Sequence record: NC_049816.1 | Origin: Escherichia phage tunus | Reading direction: 5' to 3' (one strand) | Length of the DNA stretch: 51,111 nt | Part shown: positions 12,715-47,319 of the stretch, piece after piece | How positions within the stretch are numbered: position 1 is the stretch's first letter | How the letters are laid out: each line of letters opens with the position of its first letter | Notes under the pieces: generated by a model | The model's database searches: none | What the model was told of the DNA's origin: nothing | The model's input: only the letters and a program-made list of their open reading frames with translations | Program-made: the position numbers and the translations under genes

Positions 12715-12785
12715 CTTAAGATCTCCTTATAGCACTTTTTGTTAAAAGTGGAATTAATTTATTTGATAGATTGATTTTACAGGAA

Positions 12786-12815
12786 TGAAAAAAGGGGCGC
12801 AACGCCCCTTGTTTT
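12786..12815. terminator. Intrinsic terminator (bidirectional hairpin)
   Basis: GGGGCGcaaCGCCCC flanked by A8 and T-rich runs, between major tail gene and G gene. Confidence 0.6.
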
Positions 12816-13476
12816 ACTTAACGTCGGAAGGTAAGAACGTGAATCGGCCTTTCAGAGATACAGAAAGGGAAACAGTTTCCATTTCGTTCATAGTGGTTTG
12901 CGGAATGTCATTAAAAGACAATACGCCAGCCCAGCAACGCATCTCTTTAGCTTTCGGCACGTACATACGCAAAGCGGTTACGTCGCCGGATTCCTCAGCC
13001 TCGCGCAAGATCGGATAAATCGGGTTATCATATTCATGAGCGAAAGTGTAGGTAAGAGAAACCGCGCTCTTGTAGGTCGGTAACTGCTGCTCCTGGTCAT
13101 CAGCCAAACACTGATAAGTGTAATACTGTTGCTCGCCGCCGTCCTGCGCAAGATCCTGTACGCAAGGAACCTCTACCCAAGATTTCACTTCTCGGAAAGT
13201 TGCTGTGTTCTGCCCTTCTGGAAATACGTTTGTATCTTTAGTGCTAACACCCTCAAGAGTAACACTTACATTATCTGATACTTCCTTAACTCGAAGCACT
13301 CGACTAACAAGTTTGCCCCAAGAAGATGTTTCAATAAGAACATAAGCGCCTTTTTTGATGCTTTGAGTGTTTTCGGTTGTAAAAACAGGATTATCAGCAT
13401 TGCTGATTTGAGTCGCGCTAATTGGCTCACCCATATTAACGCCGATGAAAATTTGAGAACCATTAGGCAAGTGCAT
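12814..13476 (-). CDS. Major tail protein (tube)
   Basis: 220 aa, strong RBS AAGGAGG; position immediately upstream of the G/G-T chaperone. Confidence 0.65.
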   Translation of the reverse strand: MHLPNGSQIFIGVNMGEPISATQISNADNPVFTTENTQSIKKGAYVLIETSSWGKLVSRVLRVKEVSDNVSVTLEGVSTKDTNVFPEGQNTATFREVKSWVEVPCVQDLAQDGGEQQYYTYQCLADDQEQQLPTYKSAVSLTYTFAHEYDNPIYPILREAEESGDVTALRMYVPKAKEMRCWAGVLSFNDIPQTTMNEMETVSLSVSLKGRFTFLPSDVK

Positions 13477-13478
13477 GA

Positions 13479-13880
13479 TTATTCCTCCTTTGTGTCAAGC
13501 CTAACACTGAAACGGATCGGTAAGAACCAACCTGTTTCACTTTTTAGTAATGCGTGGACGTTTGCCCCCTCGCTAATATAGCCAGTTTCAAACATTCTAC
13601 CATCATAGAAAAATCTCGCAATCTCTTTAGCCAGCAAACGCGCTTTATCAGTGCCGCCGCCAGGAGGCATAACAATTCCAACCTGAACCAATCCGATATA
13701 AGAAACGCATTTTCTATCAAGAGATATGCGATCTGTGTCGGCTTCCATGTAGTCAAATTTTAACCACATCGAACCATCACCAGGCGGAACAAAATCAACG
13801 TTTTCATAGGCGATCTTGAATCGTGATTCATATTCCGCCGACAGCGCCTTTCTTGCCGCTAACATTAAATCATAGTGCAT
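13479..13880 (-). CDS. Tail terminator / tail completion protein (putative)
   Basis: 133-aa ORF with RBS GAGGG; call is by position only. Confidence 0.4.
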   Translation of the reverse strand: MHYDLMLAARKALSAEYESRFKIAYENVDFVPPGDGSMWLKFDYMEADTDRISLDRKCVSYIGLVQVGIVMPPGGGTDKARLLAKEIARFFYDGRMFETGYISEGANVHALLKSETGWFLPIRFSVRLDTKEE

Positions 13881-14313
13881 TTTTTGCCCTCGAATCCTTT
13901 ATTGCCTTAGTCATATAGGATCGCAGCTTTACCGCCACGATTCCCAGCACGCCGGACGGCGCTTGTTTTGAATGCCCGTATTCAAGCGCATTGGCGTAAA
14001 TAAGCATGTTTGAAAAATAGATTGACCGCACCGCGCCACCGCCCCGCATGATTGCATATATTGCTCGCTTGCCTTCTGCAATGGTTTTACTACCATCGCG
14101 ATCGTATTGATTGAGAGCATATAGCGGCGGCTTGTTTGCTGTTACCTGCCAGTTAGCTTTATATCGGCCCGTATCAACTGGCGAACGCTTTACAAGATCC
14201 TCGTGGACGTTTGTCGCGAACATTTCAACGCAATCAACAAGGCCGCTGCTTACTGAATCAATCCACCTGCTTATATCACCGTGAAATTCCCTGATCTTAT
14301 AATTATCCGCCAT
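13870..14313 (-). CDS. Head-tail joining / neck protein (putative)
   Basis: ATG at 14313 with RBS AAGGAGG; call is by position in the neck module. Confidence 0.4.
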   Translation of the reverse strand: MADNYKIREFHGDISRWIDSVSSGLVDCVEMFATNVHEDLVKRSPVDTGRYKANWQVTANKPPLYALNQYDRDGSKTIAEGKRAIYAIMRGGGAVRSIYFSNMLIYANALEYGHSKQAPSGVLGIVAVKLRSYMTKAIKDSRAKNAL

Positions 14314-14677
14314 GCACAGCAATCCTCCTTAATATCGGACGATAAGCTGCCGTGATGTTAGTCTGTCTGACTGGTCTTGCTTCAACGACAACATAACGAT
14401 CGCCATCAATTTCAATCTGATAACCATTTTTGATCTCAGTTTCATTGGTGAATATCCCCAACTTGTCGGTTACTCGGATTGTTTCACCGTCAACCTCTCT
14501 AGTCCTCGGAGATCTAACAAGCCCATTTATCATCACTGAAATCTCAGGCTTGGTAACTTCCTCTCCGCCGATAATCTCAACCCCTCCCTGCTGCGTGATG
14601 CACTTAAACATACCGTTAGCGTCGCTGAAAAAGTTAATCCCAGCAGTAGCCATTCTTGCAATCTCATTGTAATTCAT
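14303..14677 (-). CDS. Head-tail adaptor protein (putative)
   Basis: ATG at 14677 with RBS GGAG and ATGA overlap with upstream stop. Confidence 0.4.
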
Positions 14678-15093
14678 CGGCAACATCTCCGGCGCAATCC
14701 AGTTACAAGTCCAAAGCCGCCACCGTGCTTACGGTTTAACACTTCGTACATTTTGCCCCACGGCGTTTGTCGGATCTGCTTTCCGCTTGTATCGGAAGAA
14801 ATTCGATCAAAAGTCTGACTAAACTCACCAGTCAGAGTGAACGAGGCAACGCGGCGGGAATAGCTTTCTACGCTTTCACCTTCCTGTTTCATTGCCCCGT
14901 CTAAGGTCATAAGGTGAAGAGTGTAAAGCGCAACCGCTTTCGGGTATGAGTTTTTAAACCGTTTTTTGCAAACAAATTCTTTAGCAATCTCAATCCATGC
15001 CACAATTAAATCGGGATCAACCTGCTGCATTGGTGGGGCCAACTTTACGATTTGCTGAACGATTTCAGCGTCTGTGTAAAATTCATCTACCAT
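14674..15093 (-). CDS. Head completion / connector protein (putative)
   Basis: ATG at 15093 with RBS GGAGAAAAAA; the longer track start lies in a terminator hairpin loop. Confidence 0.4.
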
Positions 15094-15137
15094 TTTTTTC
15101 TCCAGATATGACAAGGGGCGCATAAGCGCCCCAATTA

Positions 15138-15404
15138 TTAATATTCGCCGCCATCCTCTAGCTCTTTGCGGCTCTTGCCCTCGGTAGGATCTTTTTTGCG
15201 CTTCTTCTCCGCTTTCTCCTTGATTTGCTCGTTAATTTCGGAATTGTCTTTAACTTCCACATCGCCGCGAGCGATCAGGTATTCAATTGCGGAATCATTA
15301 ATGCGATCTGATTCAATTTCAATTTCATCACCAGGATGATAACGCTTACCGTCCATAATAATCATGCAAACGCCAGTTACTTTAAGTTTTAAAGTTTTGC
15401 TCAT
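15138..15404 (-). CDS. Hypothetical structural-module protein
   Basis: 88 aa, RBS GGAG, Lys/Glu-rich C-terminus; between major capsid and connector genes. Confidence 0.4.
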
Positions 15405-15421
15405 TTTGTGTACTCCATAAA

Positions 15422-15450
15422 TAAAAAAGGGGAACCCTTAAGGCTCCCCA
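15422..15450. terminator. Intrinsic terminator-like hairpin downstream of major capsid gene
   Basis: GGGGAaccCTTaagGGcTCCCC with flanking A/T runs. Confidence 0.5.
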
Positions 15451-15460
15451 TGTTATCTAA

Positions 15461-16432
15461 TTAAACTGACTTTTTCAAGCCAGTAATAAGCACCATCGTA
15501 AACGGACGGTAAATCGTAAGGCCAGTACACTTGGAAGTGCAAGGAACCTTGAAATGAAGGTCTTTTGGCTGCGCCGGAAGCATGTTAAACGCTTCTGGAA
15601 TCTCAATGCTCATATTCATTGGATCTTTTTCGTAAACCAAGCAACCTTTAGTACCTTTGCCGTCAATATCCTCAAGCTCTGCGATAGAGTCGATAGTGAT
15701 GCCGCCGTTTTGCTTCTGGAAGTATTCCAGATAACTTTCAGTGGTATTTTCCATTCGAACCGTCAGGACTTTGCGCATGGACGGCGGGATCAGGATGTTA
15801 GTCGCGCGGTGCTGGCCTTTTGTTACTTCCTCGATCGTTTCGATTGCGGCCTCCAGTTCATCGCTTGCCACATCAGGGAACTTGGTGTTTCCATCCTGGC
15901 TCATCCATCCTTTAGAAACAATTTTCGTAAGGTTAGGGTGATCGAAAACGGAAACGATCTTATGAGGCTTGGAACCTTTGAACACCAGGAAGTTAATCAA
16001 CTGATCATGCGCATTTTGCGCAGCGTTAGCCTTGCGAGTTGACAGGCTCTTGCCAGTTCGCTGACCTGCTTTAATCTCATCAATGGAGATCAGAAAAGCG
16101 TTACCCAGGCGGAACACTTTGCCAAACTCAGAAGTCATCAGCGCGTCCACAGTCGGCAGATCGTCGGTGTAGTCGGCGATAATTTTCGCGTAGCCAACCT
16201 TATCAAAAGTCTGATACTCAAAAGTCTTATCAGTATCAGAAAGCTCGTTTGTTACAGGGAATACGCGAAGTGCGGAACCTGCCGGATACTCTTTCTCGTA
16301 TGCCGTTGAACGGATCTTGTGTAGCTCCTGAGCGGTCCAAATACCCATATCAGAAGCATCACCCTTAACGCCCTGAACCTGTAAATGATTTGCTACAATG
16401 GTAGCATCTAATTCATCGTATTTTTTAGCCAT
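15461..16432 (-). CDS. Major capsid protein
   Basis: 323 aa, RBS GGAGG; flanked by terminator hairpins typical of a highly expressed gene. Confidence 0.85.
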   Translation of the reverse strand: MAKKYDELDATIVANHLQVQGVKGDASDMGIWTAQELHKIRSTAYEKEYPAGSALRVFPVTNELSDTDKTFEYQTFDKVGYAKIIADYTDDLPTVDALMTSEFGKVFRLGNAFLISIDEIKAGQRTGKSLSTRKANAAQNAHDQLINFLVFKGSKPHKIVSVFDHPNLTKIVSKGWMSQDGNTKFPDVASDELEAAIETIEEVTKGQHRATNILIPPSMRKVLTVRMENTTESYLEYFQKQNGGITIDSIAELEDIDGKGTKGCLVYEKDPMNMSIEIPEAFNMLPAQPKDLHFKVPCTSKCTGLTIYRPFTMVLITGLKKSV

Positions 16433-16445
16433 TTTGCTTCCTCCA

Positions 16446-16472
16446 TAAAAAAGGCCGTTAAATGTAACGGCC
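16446..16472. terminator. Intrinsic terminator-like hairpin upstream of major capsid gene
   Basis: GGCCGTTaaatgtAACGGCC followed by T7 on the minus strand. Confidence 0.55.
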
Positions 16473-16522
16473 TAGATGATAGCACTTTTTGTTAAACGTG
16501 CAATGTTTTTTTATGCTATTAG

Positions 16523-17305
16523 TTATTCGCCAGCGGTTTTCGTAAATACAATATCAAACTGGTCAGCAACTCCAGAACCATCATTAGCAGTCCAGTTGAC
16601 GTTAACTCTGCCTCCTACACCAGTAGGAACAACAAGACCTGTACGGCTAACGCTGGCAACCTTTGGATCTTGCTCGTTTGTAATTGTCCACTGACCCGTT
16701 TTGTCATCAGCCCAAGTAGGAACAACCGTTACCTTTAATTGAACGTTATTAATCGTCTCTGTTCCCTCTATGTAGCCATTTTCGGCCTCAATGATCGCAC
16801 CAGTAAGAAGGTATTTTCTATGATGAAGCGGCGTTATTCTGACTCCGACTATGTTCATTGTTTCATCAAACTTGTAGAAGTCACCAGTAAAAATCCAGCC
16901 ATCGACGATTTCATCGCCATCACTTTTTGCTACAAAACCATCATTGTTAACATAAACAAGATCGCCATGTTCAGGCGCAGACTCAATCGTTTGAGTTAAG
17001 CACCATACAACCCCTCTTGTTAAAATATTGATAGAATCTCCTTCCTTATAGTCAGAGTATCCGTCTTCCTCGTTAACCGTTGTCGTGATATTGCTCCTTA
17101 TAGCAACACCAGCAACCACAGCATCATACTCTTTATGATCAACAAATATGTTATAACCTTCCACTCTCTCTTTGAAGAAAACAACTTTGCCAGCAATGAT
17201 CGACTCAGATCCGCAAACGCCAGTTCCATCAATATTGTAGCGAGTAGAATCAACCAAACAACCAGGGCAAGAAAGACCCATAACAGATGAATAATCTTTA
17301 GCCAT
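16523..17305 (-). CDS. Capsid-associated protein with C-terminal Ig-like domain (candidate decoration protein)
   Basis: 260 aa; N-terminus paralogous to the next ORF (RYNIDGTGVC vs AYNIDGACVL); C-terminal bacterial-Ig-like segment. Confidence 0.5.
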   Translation of the reverse strand: MAKDYSSVMGLSCPGCLVDSTRYNIDGTGVCGSESIIAGKVVFFKERVEGYNIFVDHKEYDAVVAGVAIRSNITTTVNEEDGYSDYKEGDSINILTRGVVWCLTQTIESAPEHGDLVYVNNDGFVAKSDGDEIVDGWIFTGDFYKFDETMNIVGVRITPLHHRKYLLTGAIIEAENGYIEGTETINNVQLKVTVVPTWADDKTGQWTITNEQDPKVASVSRTGLVVPTGVGGRVNVNWTANDGSGVADQFDIVFTKTAGE

Positions 17306-17324
17306 TTCATTTCTCCTTACATAA

Positions 17325-17356
17325 TAAAAAAGGCGCTCAAGCGAGCGCCTTAATTT
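17325..17356. terminator. Intrinsic terminator-like hairpin
   Basis: AGGCGCTCaagcGAGCGCCT with flanking A/T runs. Confidence 0.5.
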
Positions 17357-17865
17357 TAGCTTGGGAAGACCTGAACTTCAAACAAAGTCAACACATCATC
17401 GCCAGTTCCAAATGTGGTTTTATCTCCCGTGTAAATCCAGTTGGTATTGATAGTGCCAGCACTTTTCACCTTGCCAGTGTTTTCATCAATTTTTACAGGC
17501 TCACGATACGATGGTTTTTTGCTCTTGTCGGTATCATCGCCAACCATCCAAACGCGGCCCTCTGTCATAACGTTGATTCCGCCGCCAGCCTCATAAACCA
17601 TTCGTCCATTATCAGCCGTAGTTTGAAAGTGCGAACGGATGCCAACGCCATAAGGAACATCACCACTACCAGAAATAGCGTCGATCAGCTTATTACCCAT
17701 TGAGTCAACGCCTTTTAGCTTAACAGCCACGCCAACCAGGATTGGGATGCCGTCTTCCTTGTCAAGAACACAAGCGCCGTCGATGTTATATGCCGAAGTA
17801 TCGGATACCTGACCAGGAAGCGCACGCGCCATAGTGTCAAAATAACTTGCTCCAATTTTAGCCAT
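17356..17865 (-). CDS. Capsid-associated protein, paralog of 16523..17305
   Basis: 169 aa, RBS AAGGAG; shared motifs with downstream paralog. Confidence 0.5.
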   Translation of the reverse strand: MAKIGASYFDTMARALPGQVSDTSAYNIDGACVLDKEDGIPILVGVAVKLKGVDSMGNKLIDAISGSGDVPYGVGIRSHFQTTADNGRMVYEAGGGINVMTEGRVWMVGDDTDKSKKPSYREPVKIDENTGKVKSAGTINTNWIYTGDKTTFGTGDDVLTLFEVQVFPS

Positions 17866-17877
17866 TTTAATTACTCC

Positions 17878-18993
17878 TTATTTCAGTTTCTCAAAACGAG
17901 CGTTAGGATTCAGCTTAGAACCTGCGTCATCCTGCTTTTCATTCGCGAAAGAGTCACCTTTAATGCTCTTACGCTGCGCCGCCATTTTATCAGAGTTTTT
18001 GGCGATGTCGAAAGCTGTTTCGATATAGGCATCAGTTTTATCAGAAACGTCATTGCCCATAACTTCCTTGATGTATGCAACCTTGATTGCTTTCGCATCC
18101 AGGCCGTCGCACTTGATGCCTAACTCTTTAGCGTCTGCCACTAATTGAGCATATTGCTCGGCATCTTCTTTGGCCTTCTTGACTGCGGCATCAATCTGAT
18201 CCTGAATGCCATCTACTTTGGTTTGCAGTGCGTCTCGCTCAGCTTCCAGGCTGTCAGCCTTTTCTTTCTGAGCTTTGGTATCAGCTTTCAGTGATTCAAT
18301 GTGATCCGCAACCGCTTTCGGCACGTCAAACTCTACAGCGCCATCCAGTTTAATTTTTACAGTCATGATTTGATCCTCTTTGTTGTTAATAACGTCGTCA
18401 CTATACGGAAAATCTTGCTGGCTATCAAGGTTTAATTTTGCAATGCCAGCTCGACCTCGGAAAACTAACGCGATGTGGTTTACCTTGATTTCAGTCTGGA
18501 TTGCATCAAACTTAACCCAATCAGGAGAATCAGGTTTCCAGTCTTCGCTAACGTCCTCATCGAAAACGTACTCACCAGTTTTATTATTGCCCCAGCCTGG
18601 TTTATCAATATCAACCGATGTATAACCAACTGAAATTTCAGCCGTGTCTCGCTTCTTTGCGCTTTCGATTGCTCGTTTTGAGTAAATGCTTAACGGAACC
18701 TCTACGCCGATCCCGTTAGGCACACCAGCGCCAGCACAAGAACCAACCACAACCTTTTCGGCATTTTCTGGCGTTACCGTGACGTGACCAACCGTGACCG
18801 GCTTCCCTGCAAAGGTGGCGAGCGAGTCGGCCTTGAATACTTCTGACGCAGGGCGAAATTCTCGGCGCTCACCGAAAGGAGTCTGATAGACTTGTAAACC
18901 AATTCGCGCCACGATAGGGCGATCAACTAAAAACCCGTTATCATCAAAGTGCGCCTTTACTTTGGCGCTATCAAATCTTTGTTTTGCCTTCAT
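17878..18993 (-). CDS. Prohead protease / scaffolding fusion protein (putative)
   Basis: 371 aa; globular N-terminal half, coiled-coil Ala/Lys/Glu/Asp-rich C-terminal half; between minor head and capsid genes. Confidence 0.55.
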   Translation of the reverse strand: MKAKQRFDSAKVKAHFDDNGFLVDRPIVARIGLQVYQTPFGERREFRPASEVFKADSLATFAGKPVTVGHVTVTPENAEKVVVGSCAGAGVPNGIGVEVPLSIYSKRAIESAKKRDTAEISVGYTSVDIDKPGWGNNKTGEYVFDEDVSEDWKPDSPDWVKFDAIQTEIKVNHIALVFRGRAGIAKLNLDSQQDFPYSDDVINNKEDQIMTVKIKLDGAVEFDVPKAVADHIESLKADTKAQKEKADSLEAERDALQTKVDGIQDQIDAAVKKAKEDAEQYAQLVADAKELGIKCDGLDAKAIKVAYIKEVMGNDVSDKTDAYIETAFDIAKNSDKMAAQRKSIKGDSFANEKQDDAGSKLNPNARFEKLK

Positions 18994-19003
18994 TTAATAC
19001 CTC

Positions 19004-19759
19004 TTAACTGTTCCAATCTGGTATGGCCCAACAACGACAACCGAAAGGCTCACCAGGAAAATCATGTTCAGAATCTAGCGCAATGCGCTTACCTTCCCAT
19101 TGTACATGCTGCAATCGCTCTCTGTCATCAAGCATACCATGCCAAAAATAATGAGTTACTTTTGAATCATAAAGACGCTGGCGCATGAGTCTACTATTCC
19201 AAGCGCCTATGATGTTTTCCGCCCTTGTCTTACCCCAAGAGCTATACACTGCGAACCTCTTACCAGCCAATTCATTAACCTGGCTATCTCTCATTCCGCG
19301 AAAGTTTGCCAATCTAATATTGGTTGACCAGTCAGACACGATGTTTCCAAATAGCTTTTGAAGAGATGCGATCGTCATGTCATGCCATTGACCGTATAGC
19401 GTCCTATACCAACTCTCATTCGCATTGGCCCCAATAGCCATAAGGATGATAACGGCTGAATTTGACTTGCCTCCCGTTGATTTGGCTACGTTAATAAATT
19501 GCTTCGAGTTGAATTTATAAACAGCAAGACCGATAGCCGGAAGTGATGCGGCGATGCCAGCTATTAGCTTTAACGCGAAGCTACTAATCTCATCCTCTGC
19601 GGCGTTGATTTCTTCGGTGTCCGCGTCAAATTTCATTTCCTTTGTTTTGCTGCGCATCAGCACAACAAGATCCCTTATCGCCTCCTGAATTGAGCGGCGC
19701 AATTGCCGCTCGCTTGCCTCAGGAAAGCGCCATTGTTTAACGACGCCTTTCACTATCAT
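19004..19759 (-). CDS. Minor head / head morphogenesis protein (Mu F / SPP1 gp7 family)
   Basis: 251 aa; C-terminal HGMLDDRERLQHVQWEG...FPGEPFGCRCW motif; start ATGA-coupled to portal stop. Confidence 0.75.
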   Translation of the reverse strand: MIVKGVVKQWRFPEASERQLRRSIQEAIRDLVVLMRSKTKEMKFDADTEEINAAEDEISSFALKLIAGIAASLPAIGLAVYKFNSKQFINVAKSTGGKSNSAVIILMAIGANANESWYRTLYGQWHDMTIASLQKLFGNIVSDWSTNIRLANFRGMRDSQVNELAGKRFAVYSSWGKTRAENIIGAWNSRLMRQRLYDSKVTHYFWHGMLDDRERLQHVQWEGKRIALDSEHDFPGEPFGCRCWAIPDWNS

Positions 19760-21063: not shown

Positions 21064-21090
21064 ATAAAAAAGGCTGGAAAAATCCAGCCT
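21064..21090. terminator. Intrinsic terminator-like hairpin between terminase and portal
   Basis: AGGCTGGAtttttCCAGCCT followed by T-run on the minus strand. Confidence 0.5.
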
Positions 21091-21118
21091 TGATTATATA
21101 ACTTTTTAGCAATTAGTG

Positions 21119-22687
21119 CTATTTATTGCGTAGACCAGCCAGCTTTTTCATCCTTGCTACCGGATCATCTGCCAAGTTCATTTCGACGTTAACAGCATCA
21201 ACTATATTATCGACAATATCATCATGGGGATGAGAATCGTCAAAAGTGAACGCTGCAACCTCTGCCAGTATCTCAGGTAACATGGGATGACTTTCTGGCA
21301 GTGCCACACGTCCGGCCCTCATTACTGGCGCGGCGTCCATTGCTCGCGTTACCTTGTCATTGCTTCGCTGAACGGGATTTATATCAATCGGGATCTTCTT
21401 TTTGGCCCCCTGAATCAAACCCGTGCCGCTGGCCTTATCCTCAATGTGGATACGTCGCAAGCTGCCACACTCCTTATTGCGCTTCCAGCACTGATTAACG
21501 AAGGCAATAAAATTTAATTCAAGATCCGGCGCTTCCCACTTTCCGCGAATGCCATCAATGAAGTAAACGCGATTCTTATACATCCCCCAATAACAAAAAA
21601 CTGAATAGTCGTTAAGCTCTCCGGCCTTCTGCGCGGTATCACCAGTAATAAATGTGTATTCAAAGCGATCCGGTTTAGGAAGTGCGCATTTTTCGCCGCT
21701 GCCGTAATACTGGAACCACTCTGTTTTAAACACGTTGCCGCCAAGCGCGATGGGTTGCTGTTGGTACTGACTGGCGAACGTATAAGGATCTGCATTGCGC
21801 AATGCAAGCAATTCCTCCGCGCTTTCCTTCGCAGGCCAAAATGAATAATGAGCAACGCCATCTATCATCACTGGCTTACTTGACAACACATCACGATCAA
21901 ATTCAGGCTTCAACCAATCAGGAAGCGTTTCGCGGTATTCTTTCGTAACCAGCGCCGGAATACTCACAACTTTAAACTCAATACCACCCATCCCGCCATT
22001 AAGCATAAACCAGGTGGAATCATTAACGTGTAGTCGCTGTTGCACCATAACAATCGGCGTAGTGTCTTTCATTCGACGCGATCGCACTGTGTTTTTTAAC
22101 CGCATGTGGATCGCCTCACGCTTGACCTTAGAAAGCATATCATCAGGCTTGTCTGGATCGTCCAGAACCAGCATACCAGTAAAACCATCATCCATATAGC
22201 CGCCACGCAAACCTGTTACCTGTCCGCCAATAGAACGTGAGTTAACTTGCAATTTAACCTTGCCGCCATCCGTAACTATGAGATCTTTTGCGCTCGCCTT
22301 TGCCAGTTTTCCTGGCCATAGCTCTTGCCACTCAGGAGAACCGATAATCTCCTTTATCCTGTTGCTGTTTTGCTGGACAAGTCCATCACTAAACGAAAGG
22401 TTAAGGTTTCTCACCTTCCGACTTTTCAATGACGCGTAGGGTGACATGTGGATCGAGAAAATCTCAGTCTTACCGCTACCTGGCGTAATGTTGAAAATCA
22501 CATTCTGCGACTCTCCATTGATGATCTTCTCTACCTCACTGCACAATAAGCTAAAATGCCAGTTGCTCTGGAATTTTTGCCCCTGCAATAACTGAAACCA
22601 GATTCTGATCATCTTTTCGAATGAATGCTCACTGATTTCTTTAATGGCTCGCTTTTGCGCCGCCGTCAAATCTTCCCATATGATCAT
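21119..22687 (-). CDS. Terminase large subunit
   Basis: 522 aa; Walker A NITPGSGKTE; start overlaps small subunit stop (TAATG). Confidence 0.9.
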   Translation of the reverse strand: MIIWEDLTAAQKRAIKEISEHSFEKMIRIWFQLLQGQKFQSNWHFSLLCSEVEKIINGESQNVIFNITPGSGKTEIFSIHMSPYASLKSRKVRNLNLSFSDGLVQQNSNRIKEIIGSPEWQELWPGKLAKASAKDLIVTDGGKVKLQVNSRSIGGQVTGLRGGYMDDGFTGMLVLDDPDKPDDMLSKVKREAIHMRLKNTVRSRRMKDTTPIVMVQQRLHVNDSTWFMLNGGMGGIEFKVVSIPALVTKEYRETLPDWLKPEFDRDVLSSKPVMIDGVAHYSFWPAKESAEELLALRNADPYTFASQYQQQPIALGGNVFKTEWFQYYGSGEKCALPKPDRFEYTFITGDTAQKAGELNDYSVFCYWGMYKNRVYFIDGIRGKWEAPDLELNFIAFVNQCWKRNKECGSLRRIHIEDKASGTGLIQGAKKKIPIDINPVQRSNDKVTRAMDAAPVMRAGRVALPESHPMLPEILAEVAAFTFDDSHPHDDIVDNIVDAVNVEMNLADDPVARMKKLAGLRNK

Positions 22688-26590: not shown

Positions 26591-26636
26591 ATTATAGCGA
26601 GGCATTGTGCCTCGCGTTTAGCAATTCGTGCTATTT
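26591..26636 (-). promoter_or_regulatory. Phage promoter module (variant box + 19-bp hairpin spacer + TATAAT)
   Basis: Box variant AAATAGCACGAATTGCTAAAC; spacer palindrome GCGAGGCacaatGCCTCGC; perfect -10. Confidence 0.5.
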
Positions 26637-31073: not shown

Positions 31074-31104
31074 TTTTGTTTCCTCAATCTCGTTTCGATG
31101 AGGC

Positions 31105-31150
31105 TATTATGCCAGGCTTCGCGCCTGGCGTTTTAACAAAAAGTGCTATT
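31105..31150 (-). promoter_or_regulatory. Phage promoter module (box + 19-bp hairpin spacer + CATAAT)
   Basis: Exact box; spacer palindrome CGCCAGGCgcgaaGCCTGGC; transcript would begin near CATCGAAACGAG. Confidence 0.5.
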
Positions 31151-34185: not shown

Positions 34186-34229
34186 ATAGCACTTTTTGTT
34201 AAAAACGATGCGCTGCTGATTGGTATAGT
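34184..34229 (+). promoter_or_regulatory. Phage promoter module (box + 19-bp hairpin spacer + TATAGT)
   Basis: Exact box; spacer palindrome GATGCGCT...AGCGCATC. Confidence 0.5.
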
Positions 34230-34260
34230 AAGCGCATCGACAACAAACGAGGATTTAAAG

Positions 34261-34778: not shown

Positions 34779-35006
34779 ATGAAAGCAAAAGTTTTAAACA
34801 TTGTGTCAACTATTGACGCCCATCACCGCGTGGCTGTAAAACTTGATAAGTCTTGTGGAATTAGCCAAATCACTATCACCGAGGGTAAAGGCGGCTATCT
34901 TATTGGTATCCATCCAGGCGGTAAGGTGCGCAAATACAATAAAGATCAGTTAAAAGAATTACTGGAAGAAAACGCTTTCTATATTCAAAGTTGGCGTGCT
35001 CTTTAA
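34779..35006 (+). CDS. Hypothetical protein
   Basis: 75 aa, RBS GAGGA. Confidence 0.45.
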   Translation: MKAKVLNIVSTIDAHHRVAVKLDKSCGISQITITEGKGGYLIGIHPGGKVRKYNKDQLKELLEENAFYIQSWRAL

Positions 35007-36107: not shown

Positions 36108-36147
36108 CACTTTTTGTTAAAAGCCAGGTGTAAAAACCTGGCATAAT
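36102..36147 (+). promoter_or_regulatory. Phage promoter module (box + 19-bp hairpin spacer + CATAAT)
   Basis: Exact box; spacer palindrome CCAGGtgtaaaaaCCTGG. Confidence 0.5.
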
Positions 36148-38937: not shown

Positions 38938-38983
38938 GAATAGCATTTTTTGTTAAAACTCCCGACCTTGTGTCGGGTATATT
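38938..38983 (+). promoter_or_regulatory. Phage promoter module (box + 19-bp hairpin spacer + TATATT)
   Basis: Box variant gAATAGCATTTTTTGTTAAAA; spacer palindrome CCCGACcttgtgTCGGG; followed by CATCGAAACGAACC. Confidence 0.5.
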
Positions 38984-40358: not shown

Positions 40359-40381
40359 TTTTATTCTCCATATTAATTAAA

Positions 40382-41620: not shown

Positions 41621-41714
41621 TCTGCTACCTATCTCATCACTATATGGTACATAACTGTAACAGCGATGATAACGGGTAACGGTAGAACAAACAAGCGCCA
41701 CATGATAACTATCC

Positions 41715-41957
41715 TCATTTATAATATTTGCGAGGCTCTCGGATTTTAGCCATTGCCTCTTTGAAATCAATTTTTGTTGGAACTGCTGGAACTCTTACCA
41801 TTTTTCGCGGCCTTTCCTTGAGGAAAGTCATCTTGTCGCCGCTAATTATGCTCACATCTGCAATATCAAAGTATTGCGCGATCTTCTTTATGTCGTCGGC
41901 AATACCGCATTCTTTAGCGTGATTCCATACCGCATCTCTTCCTTGCTCAACCTTCAT
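41715..41957 (-). CDS. Hypothetical protein
   Basis: ATG at 41957 overlapping stop of upstream microprotein. Confidence 0.4.
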   Translation of the reverse strand: MKVEQGRDAVWNHAKECGIADDIKKIAQYFDIADVSIISGDKMTFLKERPRKMVRVPAVPTKIDFKEAMAKIREPRKYYK

Positions 41958-42126
41958 GCTTATAATATGCCTCCGCTTGTTCAATTGGTGCGTGACCGTA
42001 TGCAACTTTCAGTAAAAACATTGCGATCTCCCAATCAAACTGGAATCCTTCCTTTGAACCGCCATCCACTGAACCTTTTGCCACCTCTTGAGCAAGATTA
42101 AAAGCGCGTTTATCGAATACTACCAT
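41947..42126 (-). CDS. Hypothetical microprotein (59 aa)
   Basis: ATG at 42126 with RBS GAGGAAAT; below track cut-off. Confidence 0.35.
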   Translation of the reverse strand: MVVFDKRAFNLAQEVAKGSVDGGSKEGFQFDWEIAMFLLKVAYGHAPIEQAEAYYKHEG

Positions 42127-42158
42127 TTTTATTTCCTCATGTTTGTTTCGTTGAAATA

Positions 42159-42204
42159 ATTATGCCCGACACTAGGCCGGGCGTTTTAACAAAAAGTGCT
42201 ATTT
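42159..42204 (-). promoter_or_regulatory. Phage promoter module (box + 19-bp hairpin spacer + CATAAT)
   Basis: Exact box; spacer palindrome CCCGGCctagtgtCGGG. Confidence 0.5.
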
Positions 42205-42438
42205 GATCGCTGAATCGTAAAATTCTTGCAGGTCTTTAGCAATTATTTCATGCCATTTTTCAAGAGGATGTTTTCTAGTTTCCTCAAAACTCATATCCAG
42301 GCAGCCGGAAAACTCCCACAAATCGCAATCAATATATGGCTTAACGAACGAATTTTTTTCCATACAGTCGCACACCATAGCGCGATATAAAAGAAATTCG
42401 CCATCCTCATTAAGTAAAACGCTTCTCTCTTTTTCCAT
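42199..42438 (-). CDS. Hypothetical Cys-rich protein
   Basis: ATG at 42438 with RBS GGAG; multiple Cys. Confidence 0.4.
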   Translation of the reverse strand: MEKERSVLLNEDGEFLLYRAMVCDCMEKNSFVKPYIDCDLWEFSGCLDMSFEETRKHPLEKWHEIIAKDLQEFYDSAIK

Positions 42439-42442
42439 CGTA

Positions 42443-43168
42443 TTAACTCCGTTTGCGTGCTCGGCGTTCGGTAACAGAAGGACAAATATCGCTGATCTTA
42501 ACGTATCGCGTTTTCTGCTCTTCGCCTTCTTTAAGTTTACGCATGACAAAAATCACGCTCCCCTTATTGTTGCCCTGTACAGGCTCGCCAGTCAATCCAG
42601 ACACAAAGGCGATTCTTCCGGTGCGGGAATATTCCACTCCCCCCTCTTCGTAAACCTCGCCAGTGATCCAGATGATTTCAGCCGCGTTTTTCTGCGCCTC
42701 ATAAAACCATGCTGTAGAGTTGTCGGATGGCAACAAAACATCAATTTGGTTGTTGTGCTCCATTTGCTCAATTGCTTTCTTGATAAATGGAGTTGGGTTG
42801 CTGTACGGCGGGTTAAGCCATACGTGCTTGTTGCTACCCCACCAACGCTTTAAGCAGTTTGTTTCCTTGCTATAGAACTTCTCGCAAACTGCGTTTTCCT
42901 GGCTTGCTGCCGCGTCGAGATCGTATTCGCCAAATTCTGATTCCATCCACTCCACGATCTCTTGAGGTGTGCTCCACATATCGCGCACAACGTCCGGCGT
43001 AGTGCTTCCAGCGTATCGGTTGCCGCTTACCTTATAATATTGATTTGGCTTTACTGCCTGGTAATGGCCTCCAGTTGCAAGGGCATTCCCTATAAATGTT
43101 TCTCTCTCCAACTGCTCAAAGCTAACGAATGCGTCATGGGTGTCTTTATCTAAAATATCTTTAGCCAT
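42443..43168 (-). CDS. dam: DNA N6-adenine methyltransferase (phage Dam-like)
   Basis: 241 aa, RBS GGAGAAA; motifs DLDAAAS and NPPYS. Confidence 0.75.
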   Translation of the reverse strand: MAKDILDKDTHDAFVSFEQLERETFIGNALATGGHYQAVKPNQYYKVSGNRYAGSTTPDVVRDMWSTPQEIVEWMESEFGEYDLDAAASQENAVCEKFYSKETNCLKRWWGSNKHVWLNPPYSNPTPFIKKAIEQMEHNNQIDVLLPSDNSTAWFYEAQKNAAEIIWITGEVYEEGGVEYSRTGRIAFVSGLTGEPVQGNNKGSVIFVMRKLKEGEEQKTRYVKISDICPSVTERRARKRS

Positions 43169-43207
43169 TTCATTTCTCCGCTATTAAAAGCTATCTTGTG
43201 TTATTGA

Positions 43208-43253
43208 ATTATGGCGCAATCCATCGCGCCAGTTTTAACAAAAAGTGCTATTT
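43208..43253 (-). promoter_or_regulatory. Phage promoter module (box + 19-bp hairpin spacer + CATAAT)
   Basis: Exact box; spacer palindrome GGCGCGATggattGCGCC. Confidence 0.5.
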
Positions 43254-43667
43254 AAGCATGTATTCAATAGCCAACTTAAACTGATTAAATCCGTAGGCGA
43301 CCGCAGCGAATCCTCCTAAGCTGCGAACTCGACGCAAAAAAGCCTTTTGTTCATCGCTGACTGGTGATGCTTTACCCTTGCCTGATTTATTCACTCGTTT
43401 GATCTCAATCGCTGCAAATGGGTATTTTCCGTTTAAACCAATCAGGATGATGAAATCGCTTACACCCTTAACCAAGCCGGACTGCTGATCAATCATCGCC
43501 GTTGCTTTAGACTTCTCATTCTCGTTTACCGTATGCCACGCCAGCAAGTAAGGATGAGTATAAGTCAACCACTGAAAGCTATCTATCTGGTGATTAACTT
43601 CCTTTCTAGTGTCGGTTGGATCTCTTTCGTAAAACTCAAGATAATCTCCTTTATCAGTTATAGCCAT
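43248..43667 (-). CDS. VRR-NUC-type PD-(D/E)XK nuclease (putative)
   Basis: 139 aa; DFIIL...AIEIK-type motif; translationally coupled to the helicase. Confidence 0.55.
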   Translation of the reverse strand: MAITDKGDYLEFYERDPTDTRKEVNHQIDSFQWLTYTHPYLLAWHTVNENEKSKATAMIDQQSGLVKGVSDFIILIGLNGKYPFAAIEIKRVNKSGKGKASPVSDEQKAFLRRVRSLGGFAAVAYGFNQFKLAIEYMLK

Positions 43668-45664
43668 TAAACAAACTCCCGTTTTGCAATGTTATCCTCA
43701 CCTTTGCCGTTTTTGCGATGCGTTACGCGTACAGGCGGCATGATGTGATGAGCGTATGACATTATTTTACGCGCATTTCTATAGCTCGCCACCATACCAG
43801 CAATCTTGCGATCCGGTATGTGCTGCAATGCTATTTTTCTCCATATCGTCCTGCAAATGTTGCTTTCTGACTCAGGGAAAAATCTTTCGTATGCCTTGAA
43901 CGTGTCGCCGTTGGCCTCAAGCTCATAGCAAAAAATAATTCCTTTCTGGTTTTTCGTCATATCAACGCGGAAAGATTTAACGTTGCACCAATCGTTTTTG
44001 GTGTAGTGCTTACCGCTTAACTTCTCGTTAGGATCGACAAGAGAAATATCGCAACAACGGCATACTCTCGCCACTACGTCGTTTTTTGTTCCGCAACCGC
44101 GCTTGATTATCTTTTTCGTTCTCGGATCTACCTGGTCCTCGCAAATTCTGTAAGTCCAAAAATGCTCGCATCTCTTCCCGTTATCGTCTACGTGCATACA
44201 TCGGCGAGCGTAAAAGCTGTTTAGCGTTCCACATATCGGACAAGTCTTAGGCTCTTTCCCGTTTGTAAATCTCTTTTGGAATTGCGCTTGCTCAAGGATT
44301 GGATCGAAATACAAATCCCCTAACTCATCCATAGTACCTGCAAAATCCAATACAAGATGATCTTTTTTCTTGAATCCCTGATCAATGTGCCATTGCTTAA
44401 GCAGTCGCATGCCGCGCCCCAAAAGCTGGATAAGCAATGTTAGAGATCCTATCTTTCTCAGTATTACCGAAGTATCCCAAAACGGAACGTTAACGCCAGT
44501 GGTAAGCGCCTGTACCTGGAAGATGTATTTTACTTTTCCCTCGTATGCCTCCCTCAGCCACTCTTTACGCTGATTATCTCCAGTCTTGCCAGTTATGATC
44601 CTGTATTCAACGCCTGGCGGCAGTGCGGCGGCGGCCTCCTTGCAGTGCCTTTCCCCTGCGCATGTAACTAAAACTCCGTTCCTGTCTTTGCATATCTCAT
44701 GGACTTTAGCCATGATTTTCTGTGTCATTGTTGCGTCTTGATGGATCTTTTCTTCCATCTTGCGCAATGTTTTAGCGTCAAAGTCTGAAACGCCATCCTC
44801 GCTACTGGCTTCGAACTCTGAAAGGTCATAACCCAGGTCGCCTACGTCGCCGAAGTTTGTTGGCACTACCGAACCGAATTTGATTAAGTAGTTTGTGTCT
44901 ATGTTAGTCACCTGCTCACGCCAGAATCCCTTTTTGTTCTTATCTTCAACCAGTATTGGAACCACGCCGCGAAATTCAGATCCAGTCATACCGAATATTC
45001 GCAATTCGTGCCCGTATGCCTCGCGACACCTGCGCATCATTTCCATGATTATTACGGTGTACTGTGTGCGTCCTGTTCCGAACATTGGATCGCCATTGGA
45101 ATCAAATTGCTGTTCTTCTCCAATCAGTACTGGCAAATCCTTCTTAGTGGTCATCTGCTGGTAAGATTCATTATTTTCTATCGCGTCCGCGAGATCCTCC
45201 CAATCCACCTGGTGACATTCATCAATACCGATAACGTGCGGAACATAATCACCTAACGACTTAAACAATCCGTTTACTACAGTGCCCTCAGAACCGACCA
45301 CGATCGGAAAGTATGCGCTTTTTGTTTTCAGTCCGGCGCAATAGATTGAGTTTGGCACTCCAAGATTGCTGATCTCTTCCGAATCCTGATCAACAATTTC
45401 AGCCTGGCGAGCAAGGACCATCATTTTCAATCCCATTTTTCGGCATTGCGCCGCAACCATCGCAAACATCAATGTTTTGCCAGCCGACACAGAAGCCTTA
45501 ACAAAGAAAGGATGCTCATAGTTTTTCATGCGCTTTGCGATCTCGGCATACGCAACGCACTGATAAGGATAAGGCACTATATTGCCAACCGTGAATCGCT
45601 CTTGGATGCTTTTTATTACTGCCTCGCCTAACGCTGATATTTGTTTTTCGATATTTGGAATCAT
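43667..45664 (-). CDS. SF2 DNA helicase with C-terminal zinc-finger region
   Basis: 665 aa; motif I VSAGKTL, motif II IDECH; several CxxC pairs in C-terminal third. Confidence 0.8.
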   Translation of the reverse strand: MIPNIEKQISALGEAVIKSIQERFTVGNIVPYPYQCVAYAEIAKRMKNYEHPFFVKASVSAGKTLMFAMVAAQCRKMGLKMMVLARQAEIVDQDSEEISNLGVPNSIYCAGLKTKSAYFPIVVGSEGTVVNGLFKSLGDYVPHVIGIDECHQVDWEDLADAIENNESYQQMTTKKDLPVLIGEEQQFDSNGDPMFGTGRTQYTVIIMEMMRRCREAYGHELRIFGMTGSEFRGVVPILVEDKNKKGFWREQVTNIDTNYLIKFGSVVPTNFGDVGDLGYDLSEFEASSEDGVSDFDAKTLRKMEEKIHQDATMTQKIMAKVHEICKDRNGVLVTCAGERHCKEAAAALPPGVEYRIITGKTGDNQRKEWLREAYEGKVKYIFQVQALTTGVNVPFWDTSVILRKIGSLTLLIQLLGRGMRLLKQWHIDQGFKKKDHLVLDFAGTMDELGDLYFDPILEQAQFQKRFTNGKEPKTCPICGTLNSFYARRCMHVDDNGKRCEHFWTYRICEDQVDPRTKKIIKRGCGTKNDVVARVCRCCDISLVDPNEKLSGKHYTKNDWCNVKSFRVDMTKNQKGIIFCYELEANGDTFKAYERFFPESESNICRTIWRKIALQHIPDRKIAGMVASYRNARKIMSYAHHIMPPVRVTHRKNGKGEDNIAKREFV

Positions 45665-45696
45665 CTTAAACCTTTAAAAAATGCCATTTGGAGTAT

Positions 45697-45742
45697 ATAA
45701 TAGACTCATTACAATAAACTGTTTTAACAAAAAATGCTATGA
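45697..45742 (-). promoter_or_regulatory. Phage promoter module for helicase unit (box + 19-bp spacer + TATTAT)
   Basis: Box variant on minus strand in the divergent region between helicase and HTH gene. Confidence 0.45.
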
Positions 45743-45751
45743 GGTGACTAG

Positions 45752-46228
45752 ATGAAAGATGCACGAATTGCGGTGTCTACGGGTGAGATCGACAAGCGCA
45801 CTATTAACGGTAACAACGGAACGCGACGAGGTAAAGACAAAAAGCCACGAAAACACCGAACCGGATTTCTTATCCTGCGAGATGAGGTAAAAGCAAGCCT
45901 GAAATCTCGCTTGGATATTCTGATCGAGTATTATGGCGGTGTTCCTGCTATGGCTCGACGTCTACGCGTATCTCAGCAAGTCGTTAACCAATGGCGAAAG
46001 CGTGGTATGATTTCAGCCGCTGGAGCACAAAAGGTGCATAACGACTACAAATATAATGGATGCAAAGGATACCGCGCATCATTTTGTCGTCCAGATCTGC
46101 GGTTTGATTCTAACGGTAAGCCTCTTACTACCCGTTGCGACAAATACGAGATGTTGCGCGTAGTCAAAAATTCAGACTACGAACCAGGCGGACGATTCTA
46201 CAAAGGTGATAACAGCACAAATAGCTAA
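45752..46228 (+). CDS. HTH DNA-binding protein (Cro/CI-like helix-turn-helix)
   Basis: 158 aa, RBS GAGGTG; HTH segment MARRLRVSQQVVNQWRKRGMIS; basic N-terminus. Confidence 0.55.
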   Translation: MKDARIAVSTGEIDKRTINGNNGTRRGKDKKPRKHRTGFLILRDEVKASLKSRLDILIEYYGGVPAMARRLRVSQQVVNQWRKRGMISAAGAQKVHNDYKYNGCKGYRASFCRPDLRFDSNGKPLTTRCDKYEMLRVVKNSDYEPGGRFYKGDNSTNS

Positions 46229-46283
46229 TGATAAGGCTCAGCGAAATGATAATATTTGCTGGGCTTTTTTATTGAGGTTTGCC

Positions 46284-47213
46284 ATGAATACTGAAAACTT
46301 TATGACCTATCAGAAAGAAGATGTTTTGCCATATATGAAGGGGTTATGGCGTGAAGCACTACAAAGCATTTGCGGACTGCATAGCGATGTTTTCAACAAA
46401 AAGCATCAACCTTGCCCACACTGCGGCGGTAAGGATCGTTTTAGATGGACTGATAAGCTAAATGAAGAGGGCGACGGCGGCGCGATCTGCAACGTATGCG
46501 GCAACGACACGGGGATCGGTTGGTTAATGAAATTAACTGGCGAACCTTACAGCGAGGCCATCAACATTTTGGGCCGCTTCCTCGGAAAAGTGCCACAAGA
46601 TTACAGGATCAGAGCAAACAAACGCGCTTCGCGTTCTTCTGGTTACTCGTTCGGGAAACAGGCAAGTCATGAATGTTGCGAAAAAGTGATGGCAAAAACA
46701 TTAAAATTCGATCGCACACCTTTAAGCGTTTATGAGGGGATATATCCGCCGGAAGATTGTCATTATGATTGCGGCGTCAAGGATGGTCGATACATTCACG
46801 CGCTACCTTGTCACCTGGTGCATGATGACGGGCTGGATGATGAAATGTGTAACGTGCTTTTCATTGATGAGGATGGAAAGGATTGGTTTTTAGCTCGCGA
46901 CTACACGCGCGGATCTGTTGTTAAAACAGGTAGCACAGATAAGACGATCTATTTGTGCCTTGATTGGGTTGATTCTCAGCATGTTCATTTATCAACTGGT
47001 CAAGAGGTGTGGGCCTGTTTTACTCCTTCAAATCTTGAAATGGTTGCGCATAGATATAAAGGAGAAAGAAGAATGCGCGTAGTCTGCCGGAAAGATGATC
47101 GTGATGTGATAATCGCGGCAGAGGAAAGAGGGCTTGACATAATTATGCCTGTTAACGATAATTTTAAACAGGGCGTAGAAAGAAAACTCTACAAGCCTGA
47201 ATCACTGCTATAA
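46284..47213 (+). CDS. DNA primase (zinc-ribbon + TOPRIM-like)
   Basis: ATG at 46284 with RBS GAGG; N-terminal CPHCGG...CNVCG zinc ribbon; hairpin with T-run between HTH gene and this start. Confidence 0.65.
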   Translation: MNTENFMTYQKEDVLPYMKGLWREALQSICGLHSDVFNKKHQPCPHCGGKDRFRWTDKLNEEGDGGAICNVCGNDTGIGWLMKLTGEPYSEAINILGRFLGKVPQDYRIRANKRASRSSGYSFGKQASHECCEKVMAKTLKFDRTPLSVYEGIYPPEDCHYDCGVKDGRYIHALPCHLVHDDGLDDEMCNVLFIDEDGKDWFLARDYTRGSVVKTGSTDKTIYLCLDWVDSQHVHLSTGQEVWACFTPSNLEMVAHRYKGERRMRVVCRKDDRDVIIAAEERGLDIIMPVNDNFKQGVERKLYKPESLL

Positions 47214-47227
47214 AACTCCGCTAGTAT

Positions 47228-47255
47228 TGCCCCGCTTATGCGGGGTTTTTTTTTG
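47228..47255 (+). terminator. Intrinsic terminator after primase
   Basis: CCCCGCttatGCGGGG followed by T9. Confidence 0.65.
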
Positions 47256-47319
47256 CACTTGAAAATGCTATTATCTGCATTGTCATTAGCAAAAAGTGCT
47301 ATTTAGGAGGATTTTACAA

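Follow-up and report, generated by a model that had tools for sequence, protein, structure and literature searches.

Copies of the T1-family 21-nucleotide repeat adjoin predicted late promoters of Escherichia phage tunus and resemble the marbox

The genome of Escherichia phage tunus (NC_049816.1; the whole stretch of 51,111 nucleotides (nt) analysed here is called the window) carries many copies of a short box, most of them at a set distance ahead of a −10 hexamer, and this raises the question of why further copies lie among the late genes, some of them pointing against transcription. The window is the complete 51,111-base genome of a T1-like siphovirus (Drexlerviridae, Tempevirinae, Warwickvirus), with its structural genes on the minus strand from ~3,200 to 23,300 and the tail fibre gene set apart on the plus strand at 47,321. 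A preliminary description of the window listed four late copies, starting at 12727, 16477, 21104 and 47284, as orphans without a usable −10, which might act at the RNA level or as factor-binding sites. All four copies are present and non-random, and the evidence favours the factor-binding site; the orphan label holds for some copies only and is wrong for the copy at 12727. We find that the late copies stand in or just past predicted late promoters that are conserved among relatives. We propose, with a probability of about 0.55, that the box is a marbox-type site for the host regulators MarA, SoxS and Rob, which would activate the early promoters and use the same site as an operator on the late ones.

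Judged by its sequence, the box is the 21-nt repeat already described for T1 and TLS. The TLS repeat, with the consensus aaATAGCACnnnTTGnTAAAA, occurs in 21 copies, 18 of them intergenic (DR1–DR18), and is also found in T1, Rtp and Rogue1 (PMC11447400). The copies at 12729 and 21103 match that consensus without a mismatch, the copy at 16479 has one mismatch and the copy at 47283 has two. Searching the window with a 15-base core, AACAAAAAGTGCTAT, at up to three mismatches gave 23 matches where 3.0 were expected, and the 19-base family consensus ATAGCACNNNTTGNTAAAA gave 20 matches at up to two mismatches. The earlier inventory was incomplete, since it lacked a fifth late copy at 6798–6817, a normal module at 26615–26634 and a degenerate copy at 46212–46229 (Table 1).

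The function of the repeat was named as one of four open questions on T1-like phages, with stoperators, enhancers and UP elements offered as guesses, and the TLS repeats were said to be oriented with transcription, ~76 nt ahead of start codons (PMC11447400). Supplementary Table S1 of the same paper contradicts that description, since it places DR7, which is not discussed in the text, on the minus strand amid plus-strand late genes, beside terminator T35 (PMC11447400). DR7 is the counterpart of the capsid copy of the window and DR8 that of the J copy. The window also departs from the published description: the 12729, 16479 and 47283 copies face against the flanking genes and touch or overlap elements of late promoters, while the 21103 copy runs in the sense direction but has a terminator between it and the portal start.

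Table 1. Box copies, predicted promoters and related features in the window.
Feature	Position	Strand	Details
G-chaperone box ATAGCACTTTTTGTTAAAAG	12729–12748	+	0 mismatches to the family and marbox consensuses; 12729–12747 is a perfect core
Extended −10 of the backward promoter at G	12764–12772	+	TG-A-TAGATT; starts 18 nt after the 20-mer
Sense late promoter of G (P_G), predicted	12774–12802	−	−35 TTGCGC (12802–12797), 17 bp, −10 TAAAAT (12779–12774); predicted start ~12767
Short non-coding RNA from the backward promoter, predicted	12779–12818	+	start ~A12779, inferred from the −10 position; ends at the bidirectional terminator
Capsid-gene box ATAGCACTTTTTGTTAAACG	16479–16498	+	reverse orientation relative to the late genes; 16479–16497 is a perfect core
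Major capsid protein promoter (P_MCP), predicted	16476–16512	−	A-tract (16512–16506), −35 TTGCAC (16503–16498), 16-bp spacer formed by the box, TG-C-TATCAT (16484–16476); predicted start ~16469
Portal box ATAGCACTAATTGCTAAAAA	21103–21122	−	sense orientation, against the terminase stop codon; 0 mismatches
Portal promoter (P_portal), predicted	21070–21098	−	−10 TATAAT (21098–21093), 4 nt after the box; terminator hairpin 21091–21070 next
Fibre box ATAGCACTTTTTGCTAATGA	47283–47302	−	reverse; 3′ half TAATG (not TAAAA); just 5′ of the fibre Shine-Dalgarno sequence
Fibre promoter (P_fibre), predicted	47266–47274	+	extended −10 TG-C-TATTAT, downstream of the primase terminator 47229–47254; predicted start ~47281
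J box, fifth late copy ACAGCACAAAAGGTTAAAAG	6798–6817	−	sense; covers the Shine-Dalgarno sequence of a J-like tail gene (ATG 6795–6793)
J promoter (P_J), predicted	6832–6860	−	−35 TTGCGC (6860–6855, inside terminator 6867–6851), 17 bp, −10 TATAAT (6837–6832); predicted start ~6825
Further normal module	26615–26634	−	GAA-type box, TATAAT at 18 nt; not caught by the 15-mer search
Degenerate sense copy in the regulator/primase gene overlap	46212–46229	+	not caught by the 15-mer search; T1 and TLS have an intergenic copy, then a hairpin
Overlapping promoters with the geometry of the G copy	45690–45740		leftward box promoter (box 45740–45721, TATTAT 45702–45697) over the rightward TTTAAA-17-TATAAT (−10 45696–45701) of the Cro-like regulator gene

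Away from the late region the box is part of a regular module. Read in the direction of its ATAGCAC, this consists of an upstream stop codon, the 20-mer ATAGCACTTTTTGTTAAAAC, 18 nt, a −10 hexamer, a leader, a Shine-Dalgarno sequence and the ATG. The gap between box and −10 is 18 nt in 17 other modules of the window (17 nt in two modules) and in 15 modules of T1. The −10 hexamers are TATAGT, CATAAT, TAAAGT, TACATT, TATATT, TAAAAT and TATTAT, often with TGn ahead of them, and the modules have no −35 hexamer.

The marbox is the asymmetric 20-base-pair (bp) site of MarA, SoxS and Rob (and of RamA in Klebsiella), which are monomeric regulators of the AraC type. Its consensus has been given as gcannwwntgnnaaa, and class II promoters carry it in forward orientation, centred at −36 to −55 and overlapping the −35 (PMC12052159). 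That consensus matches the window perfectly at 19 places, where 1.5 would be expected, and each of these is a copy of the box. An older and longer consensus, AYNGCACNNWNNRYYAAA (AYnGCACnnWnnRYYAAA), has 25 matches at up to one mismatch, against 2.6 expected. The fibre copy has one mismatch to the longer consensus and fails the shorter one, having AAT for AAA. A perfect match to the longer consensus at 22538–22555 (+), ACTGCACAATAAGCTAAA, lies antisense within the large terminase gene and is probably due to chance, given the 2.6 matches expected at up to one mismatch.

The resemblance extends to promoter geometry. In the E. coli micF promoter, the sequence of which was fetched for this comparison, ACAGCACTGAATGTCAAAAC is followed by 18 nt, TAGAAT, 7 nt and the transcription start. 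The phage 20-mer is identical to that of micF at 15 of 20 positions and aligns with the same 18-nt gap to the −10, so the phage GCAC stands in the micF register; under the predicted-start convention of this analysis it occupies −47 to −44. In the complex of Rob and RNA polymerase on micF, the 20-bp box has GCAC and CAAA sites, −47G and −45A are contacted, and Rob displaces sigma region 4 from the −35 (PMC9178005). The normal modules and the 12727 copy thus share with micF-type class II promoters an asymmetric 20-bp consensus box, in forward orientation over the position of an absent −35, 18 bp from the −10. All of this is present at the 12727 copy, which would also resemble micF in giving rise to a short non-coding RNA. 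The phage differs from the host stress regulon in having ~20 such sites per 51 kilobases of a virulent genome, at which binding is predicted from sequence, and in that the late copies other than 12727 lie outside the class I and class II positions.

Two features of the modules are recorded here in their own right. The 18-nt gap is usually a GC-rich inverted repeat, differing in sequence from module to module, whose 3′ arm enters the −10 (31095–31130, 34205–34235, 36123–36145, 38959–38980 and 42150–42183). Read in reverse it gives a hairpin, TTTT and AACAAAAAG, resembling a weak terminator for antisense transcription, and micF is without such a hairpin. Between the predicted start and the Shine-Dalgarno sequence of many early genes there is also a conserved C/A-rich leader motif (CATCGAAACGAACC or CAACAAACGAGG), seen downstream of the −10 in modules 32494, 32881, 38940, 31135, 42188, 34186, 28131 and 36104.

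For comparison with the late copies we used 79 capsid-gene loci and 27 primase-gene loci from viral contigs, together with the T1 genome, a tunus record (50,000 of 50,979 bases) and the genome of Vibrio phage Vc1. Across a tested 5 kb, the identity between the window and tunus is 99.6%. A copy is kept at the same position in 79 of 80 capsid loci, in all 26 distinct J loci, in 15 of 16 distinct fibre loci, in 21 of 75 G loci and in 16 of 47 distinct portal loci. The late promoters were assigned by −10 conservation, extended −10 motifs and comparison with relatives, and from the −10 hexamers we infer all late transcription starts. Relative to these predicted starts, the box is centred at about −26.5 (portal, forward), −19.5 (capsid, reverse), +28.5 (G, reverse), +17.5 (J, forward, over the Shine-Dalgarno sequence) and +11.5 (fibre, reverse). 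All of these centres are outside the activating positions of classes I and II, and all are within reach of the core promoter or the early elongation complex.

At the G-chaperone gene the box is antisense to the late genes and abuts the ribosome-binding site (RBS), as first described, the Shine-Dalgarno sequence (ctcctt) being at 12723–12728. The box-bearing loci include T1, while the inverted copy is absent from TLS-like and Klebsiella-type phages. On sequence grounds the copy is a complete module facing backwards and not an orphan. The hexamer 18 nt past the box reads TAnnnT in 18 of 18 distinct relatives, including T1, usually after TGn (TAGATT, TATATT, TATCAT, TAGCAT, TATCTT, TAGAGT, TACAGT, TAGGCT, TAGGAT, TACGAT and TAAGAT). 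Because this pattern is kept while the 18-nt spacer drifts freely between relatives, the backward −10 is likely to be under selection.

The opposite strand of the same DNA carries the predicted sense promoter P_G, whose −35, TTGCGC, is supplied by the terminator of the tail-tube gene (its loop and 3′ arm). Its −10 is TAAAAT, TACAAT or TAGAAT in all box-bearing relatives, one base beyond the backward −10, and its existence is deduced from the box-less relatives, which keep TTGCGC-16-TAATAT in this place. The two −10 hexamers are therefore adjacent on opposite strands, with predicted starts at 12767 and 12779, only 12 bp apart. Since the predicted open complexes share DNA, RNA polymerase would occupy one direction at a time.

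The preliminary description had noted the TAGATT and a terminator close to it as a possible source of a short RNA, and the comparison with relatives strongly supports that remark on the two elements. The backward hexamer is conserved, the hairpin at 12792–12810 scores as a terminator on both strands in the window, and the product would be ~40 nt long, with a predicted fold of −15.6 kcal/mol (z = −3.5). The plus-strand U-tract of this terminator is weak in most relatives, including T1. The RNA would miss the G RBS: the Shine-Dalgarno sequence and ATG (12728–12712) lie upstream of its promoter and do not overlap an RNA starting at ~12779, so classic masking of the RBS is impossible.

Overlapping divergent or bidirectional promoters are known from the symmetry of host −10 elements, from pIN and pOUT of IS10 and from the interference of pR and pL in phage 186. 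The G copy and the locus at 45690–45740 likewise each place two promoters in one melted region, which implies competition for polymerase. They differ from those examples in that the activator site of one partner lies in the leader of the other, and the activator could choose the direction. At 45690–45708 the TATAAT of the regulator and the leftward TATTAT of the helicase operon overlap by 5 bp, and their predicted starts are 18 bp apart.

The capsid copy is antisense to the late genes but does not abut the capsid RBS, as had been described, because a terminator hairpin (16452–16473) lies between them. Among the 79 loci with an inverted box here, 47 have at most two mismatches and 32 have three to five, and the box can be followed down to 54% capsid identity. 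Read on the late strand, the box is, by its sequence, the spacer plus half of the −10 of the capsid promoter. The layout of P_MCP recurs in 58 of 58 distinct relatives, with an A-tract, a −35 (TTGCAC, TTGACG, TTGAAC or TTGACC), 16 bp and TG-n-TATCAT, TATTCT, TATATT or TATTAT. A promoter scanner calls P_MCP in T1 (TTGACG-16-TATTAT, 10/12 matches, TG present) and in one Klebsiella-type locus. The box thus lies within an otherwise independent, predicted sigma-70 promoter, which is the arrangement of a core-promoter marbox. The predicted start at ~16469 falls within the 5′ arm of the hairpin, so RNA from P_MCP would escape the terminator that stops read-through from upstream. A backward −10 at this copy was rejected, since the hexamer in the window, TATTAG, has G at −7, and those of relatives (TTATGC, TTAGCA and TTATAC) are not conserved.

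The portal copy had been called degenerate; it matches the family consensus and both marbox consensuses without a mismatch, has a TAA centre and runs with the late genes. In the junctions that have it, the terminase stop codon lies in or against the box. A TAGCAC lies exactly 17 bp upstream of the −10 of P_portal. Relatives with the box have TATAAT or TACAAT 4–6 nt past it and a hairpin immediately after, and box-less relatives (T1 and TLS-like phages) retain the −10 and the hairpin. The position of the fibre copy directly before the fibre RBS is confirmed, with TAATG instead of TAAAA in its 3′ half. The layout in 15 of 16 distinct relatives is the primase terminator, TGC-TAGAAT, TAAAAT, TATAAT or TATTAT, 6–8 nt, GTCATTAACAAAACGTGCTAT, TTAGGAG and ATG; the TAATG variant is constant among the relatives carrying it, and the T1 copy is at 34902. 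The fibre box thus occupies about +3 to +22 of a conserved extended −10 promoter. The J copy has no mismatch to AYNGCACNNWNNRYYAAA, and the −10 of P_J is TATAAT or TACAAT in all relatives.

Late promoters and terminators appear to be fused in two ways. At G and J the −35 TTGCGC comes from the loop and 3′ arm of a terminator (12792–12810 and 6851–6867), whereas at the portal and capsid genes the −10 lies 3–6 nt ahead of a hairpin (21070–21091 and 16452–16473). Because the predicted start of the second type falls inside the 5′ arm, its RNA would escape the read-through terminator. One further late intergenic region, 8950–9005 (−), has a terminator, then TGT-TACAAT and GAGCAAAAAGGAGG, without a full box, and its leader has AGCAAAAAG in common with the box.

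Which factor might bind is suggested by the distribution of the box. It is nearly invariant across phages that infect different enteric genera and whose capsid proteins are only 54% identical, and this near-invariance across divergent phages suits a conserved host factor. A tblastn search of the window with MarA- and SoxS-like queries found no such gene (best E = 0.8, noise). The regulator encoded at 45752–46228 is Cro-like by Pfam (below the cut-off), and its model has an all-alpha Cro fold, with a predicted local distance difference test (pLDDT) score of 85.8, and is not of the AraC type. In the literature searched, we found no paper linking the marbox, Rob, MarA or SoxS to T1-like phages.

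Other promoter elements do not explain the box. A sigma-54 promoter (TAGCACGAATTGCT, like TGGCAC-N5-TTGC) was rejected because there are 3 nt, not 5, between GCAC and TTGC and AG stands for GG; it is also countered by the sigma-70 −10 found 18 nt downstream of the box. As a −35, TTGTTA would stand too far from the −10, at 22 bp, and as an UP element the T- and A-tracts would be ~7 bp out of register with the UP subsites. Reading TGCTAT of the box as an extended −10 for the G and fibre genes would put the start in or past the Shine-Dalgarno sequence, and the hexamers end in G or A, not T. That reading does hold at the capsid copy, which has a real −35 16 bp upstream.

Several observations weigh against a marbox-type operator in the late promoters. 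A strict two-hexamer scanner called none of the five late promoters (G, capsid, portal, fibre and J) in the window, and the late −35 hexamers TTGCGC, TTGCAC and TAGCAC match at no more than 3 of 6 positions. The late copies are, to judge from their distribution, dispensable, because the capsid copy is degenerate in the Klebsiella-type clade (4–5 mismatches, while the normal boxes of that clade are perfect) and the G and portal copies are absent from whole lineages. The GAA/C-type box is a perfect inverted repeat, TAGCA-N5-TGCTA, so that a dimeric helix-turn-helix protein of the phage is conceivable. Vibrio phage Vc1 (NC_054898.2) has the same boxes, for example at 5730 (−), 20486 (−), 46433 (+) and 47318 (+); this leaves three readings, namely a marbox-binding protein in its host, a doubtful host record or a factor encoded by the phage. 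At the capsid and portal promoters it is also uncertain which way any effect would go, since a marbox inside a core promoter can activate as well, as it does at flgBP2 (discussed below). The recorded host of Vc1 is Vibrio cholerae, and this phage too has an inverted copy upstream of its capsid gene; ~20 records named 'Campylobacter phage' belong to the same family.

The box could instead be bound by a phage protein, for instance a dimer of the Cro-like regulator on TAGCA-N5-TG(C/T)TA, centred near −42 as lambda cI is at PRM. The likeness to the marbox would then be coincidence or mimicry, and the late copies would still be operators. This regulator is conserved throughout the family (99 homologues, and 823 phage records), it has a helix-turn-helix domain and the all-alpha model described above, and the promoter of its gene overlaps one of the box type. 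In addition, the GAA/C-type box forms a perfect 5-N5-5 palindrome, and Vc1 retains boxes and regulator alike. However, the commonest box type is an imperfect palindrome (TAGCA and TGTTA), and its strongly conserved flanks are asymmetric (A on the 5′ side, AAAA-C on the 3′ side). The single orientation and fixed distance of 18 nt from the −10 fit a monomeric, asymmetric binder, and a phage protein would require a chance match to two independent marbox consensuses as well as to the micF spacing. We therefore consider it unlikely. A different doubt is whether the late copies have any regulatory role. They might have come to lie between late modules as remnants of recombination linkers or of mobile promoter cassettes, a view put forward for the promoter–stem-loop cassettes of T4-type phages. 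Boxes do lie at module boundaries (the variable gene upstream of the capsid gene, for example, stops right at the promoter), the G and portal copies come and go by lineage, and the capsid copy decays in one clade. Remnants would hardly keep position, orientation and register relative to the −10 and −35 fixed across subfamilies, nor retain TG-n-TA-nnn-T amid drifting bases at the G copy, which is a signature of selection, and each of the five late copies lies between −27 and +29 relative to a predicted late start. This explanation seems to us very improbable.

A role in RNA, which the preliminary description had entertained, fares worse. Here UUUUAACAAAAAGUGCUAU in the 5′ leader would be a translational enhancer, a processing site or a protein-binding RNA beside the RBS. 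At four genes (G, fibre, J and the regulator) the predicted leader does contain the box, which adjoins the Shine-Dalgarno sequence on its 5′ side or overlaps it, and the sequence is A/U-rich and unstructured, which can help ribosomes to load. But the late copies run forward at J and portal and in reverse at G, capsid and fibre, so their RNAs would differ in sequence, and the capsid copy, being upstream of the start predicted there, would be missing from mRNA made from that promoter. The leaders fold no better than shuffled sequences (z = 0.04, 0.06, 0.56 and 2.05), an Rfam search of the whole window gave no match, and the fixed distance of the box upstream of a −10 at ~17 other sites points to a constraint on DNA. 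Hence a function in RNA is hardly credible. For the 12727 copy alone, the backward promoter might serve its ~40-nt product as a small RNA acting in trans or in cis, like micF, which is a precedent for a marbox-driven small RNA. The complete and conserved promoter, the terminator that scores on both strands in the window and the stable predicted hairpin speak for this. On the other side, the RNA is clear of the G RBS and has complementarity solely with the terminator and 3′ end of the mRNA of the tail-tube gene, its conserved bases are all accounted for by the sense-strand terminator and the −35 and −10 of P_G, the plus-strand U-tract is lost in most relatives, and the RNA itself has no Rfam match. 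We regard a small RNA as the purpose of this promoter as rather improbable.

Returning to a marbox-type site, we propose the following scheme. In the normal modules the factor would stand in for the −35 contact, and early and middle genes would thereby be turned on. The same factor would occupy the late promoters as an operator and hold them down, by occlusion, roadblock or direction-switching, until it was titrated or inactivated. At the G gene it would also bring in polymerase facing the unproductive way. A marbox in the spacer of the pbpG promoter causes repression by MarA, SoxS and Rob (PMC12052159), whereas MarA bound at −16 to −30 activates the sigma-28 promoter flgBP2 via base-pair distortion (PMC12781870). 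The capsid copy similarly fills the spacer (~−29 to −10) and the portal copy covers ~−36 to −17, in a register a few bp off both host promoters. As pbpG and flgBP2 have opposite outcomes, position by itself does not tell the sign of the effect; the precedent of pbpG favours repression, which is the probable effect of the late copies.

Two other systems are instructive. The stoperators of mycobacteriophage L5 are an analogy offered by the TLS authors (PMC11447400). They share with the boxes the many copies of an asymmetric site in intergenic regions and leaders, potentially blocking transcription. They differ in being bound by a prophage repressor and in having one orientation relative to transcription, whereas the phage studied here is virulent, its late copies have both orientations and most of its copies are spaced from a −10 as activation would require. 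Neither a repressor nor a lysogeny module was identified in the window, in which the sole helix-turn-helix regulator is Cro-like. The middle promoters of T4 combine a MotA box centred at −30 with an extended −10, and MotA and AsiA are phage-encoded. They too form a class of phage promoter in which an activator box substitutes for the −35 next to a sigma-70 −10. Here the box is centred at ~−41, and MotA and AsiA genes were not found in the window.

Taken further, the scheme would have T1-family phages wire their whole transcription programme to MarA, SoxS and Rob and draw a replication-coupled timer from a host factor alone, an extension that we offer tentatively and consider on balance doubtful. 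Early and middle genes would depend on about 15–20 class II marbox promoters in each genome, while marboxes in or just past the terminator-fused late promoters would keep the structural genes off as long as the factor was free. Replication would then multiply the sites to thousands, the abundant and constitutive Rob would be titrated and the late promoters would open, and the bidirectional promoter at the G gene would flip direction at the same time. In the literature searched, neither a transcriptome nor a map of transcription starts was found for any T1-like phage.

Among coliphages and Klebsiella phages the T1-like group is very common, and its members are used in therapy collections and feared as laboratory contaminants. 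Even without the marbox, the published statement that all repeats point with transcription is corrected, and the late copies are conserved parts of predicted late promoters. If the repeat is a marbox, this would be the first concrete and testable answer to the question of its function in the T1 family. A virulent phage family would then borrow a host activator of the antibiotic and stress response for its early genes and use the same site as a switch on its late promoters. Phage growth would be linked to bile, salicylate, redox drugs and mar-type antibiotic-resistance mutations, and a timer of the kind outlined above would make the phage responsive to bile salts, antibiotics and oxidative stress.

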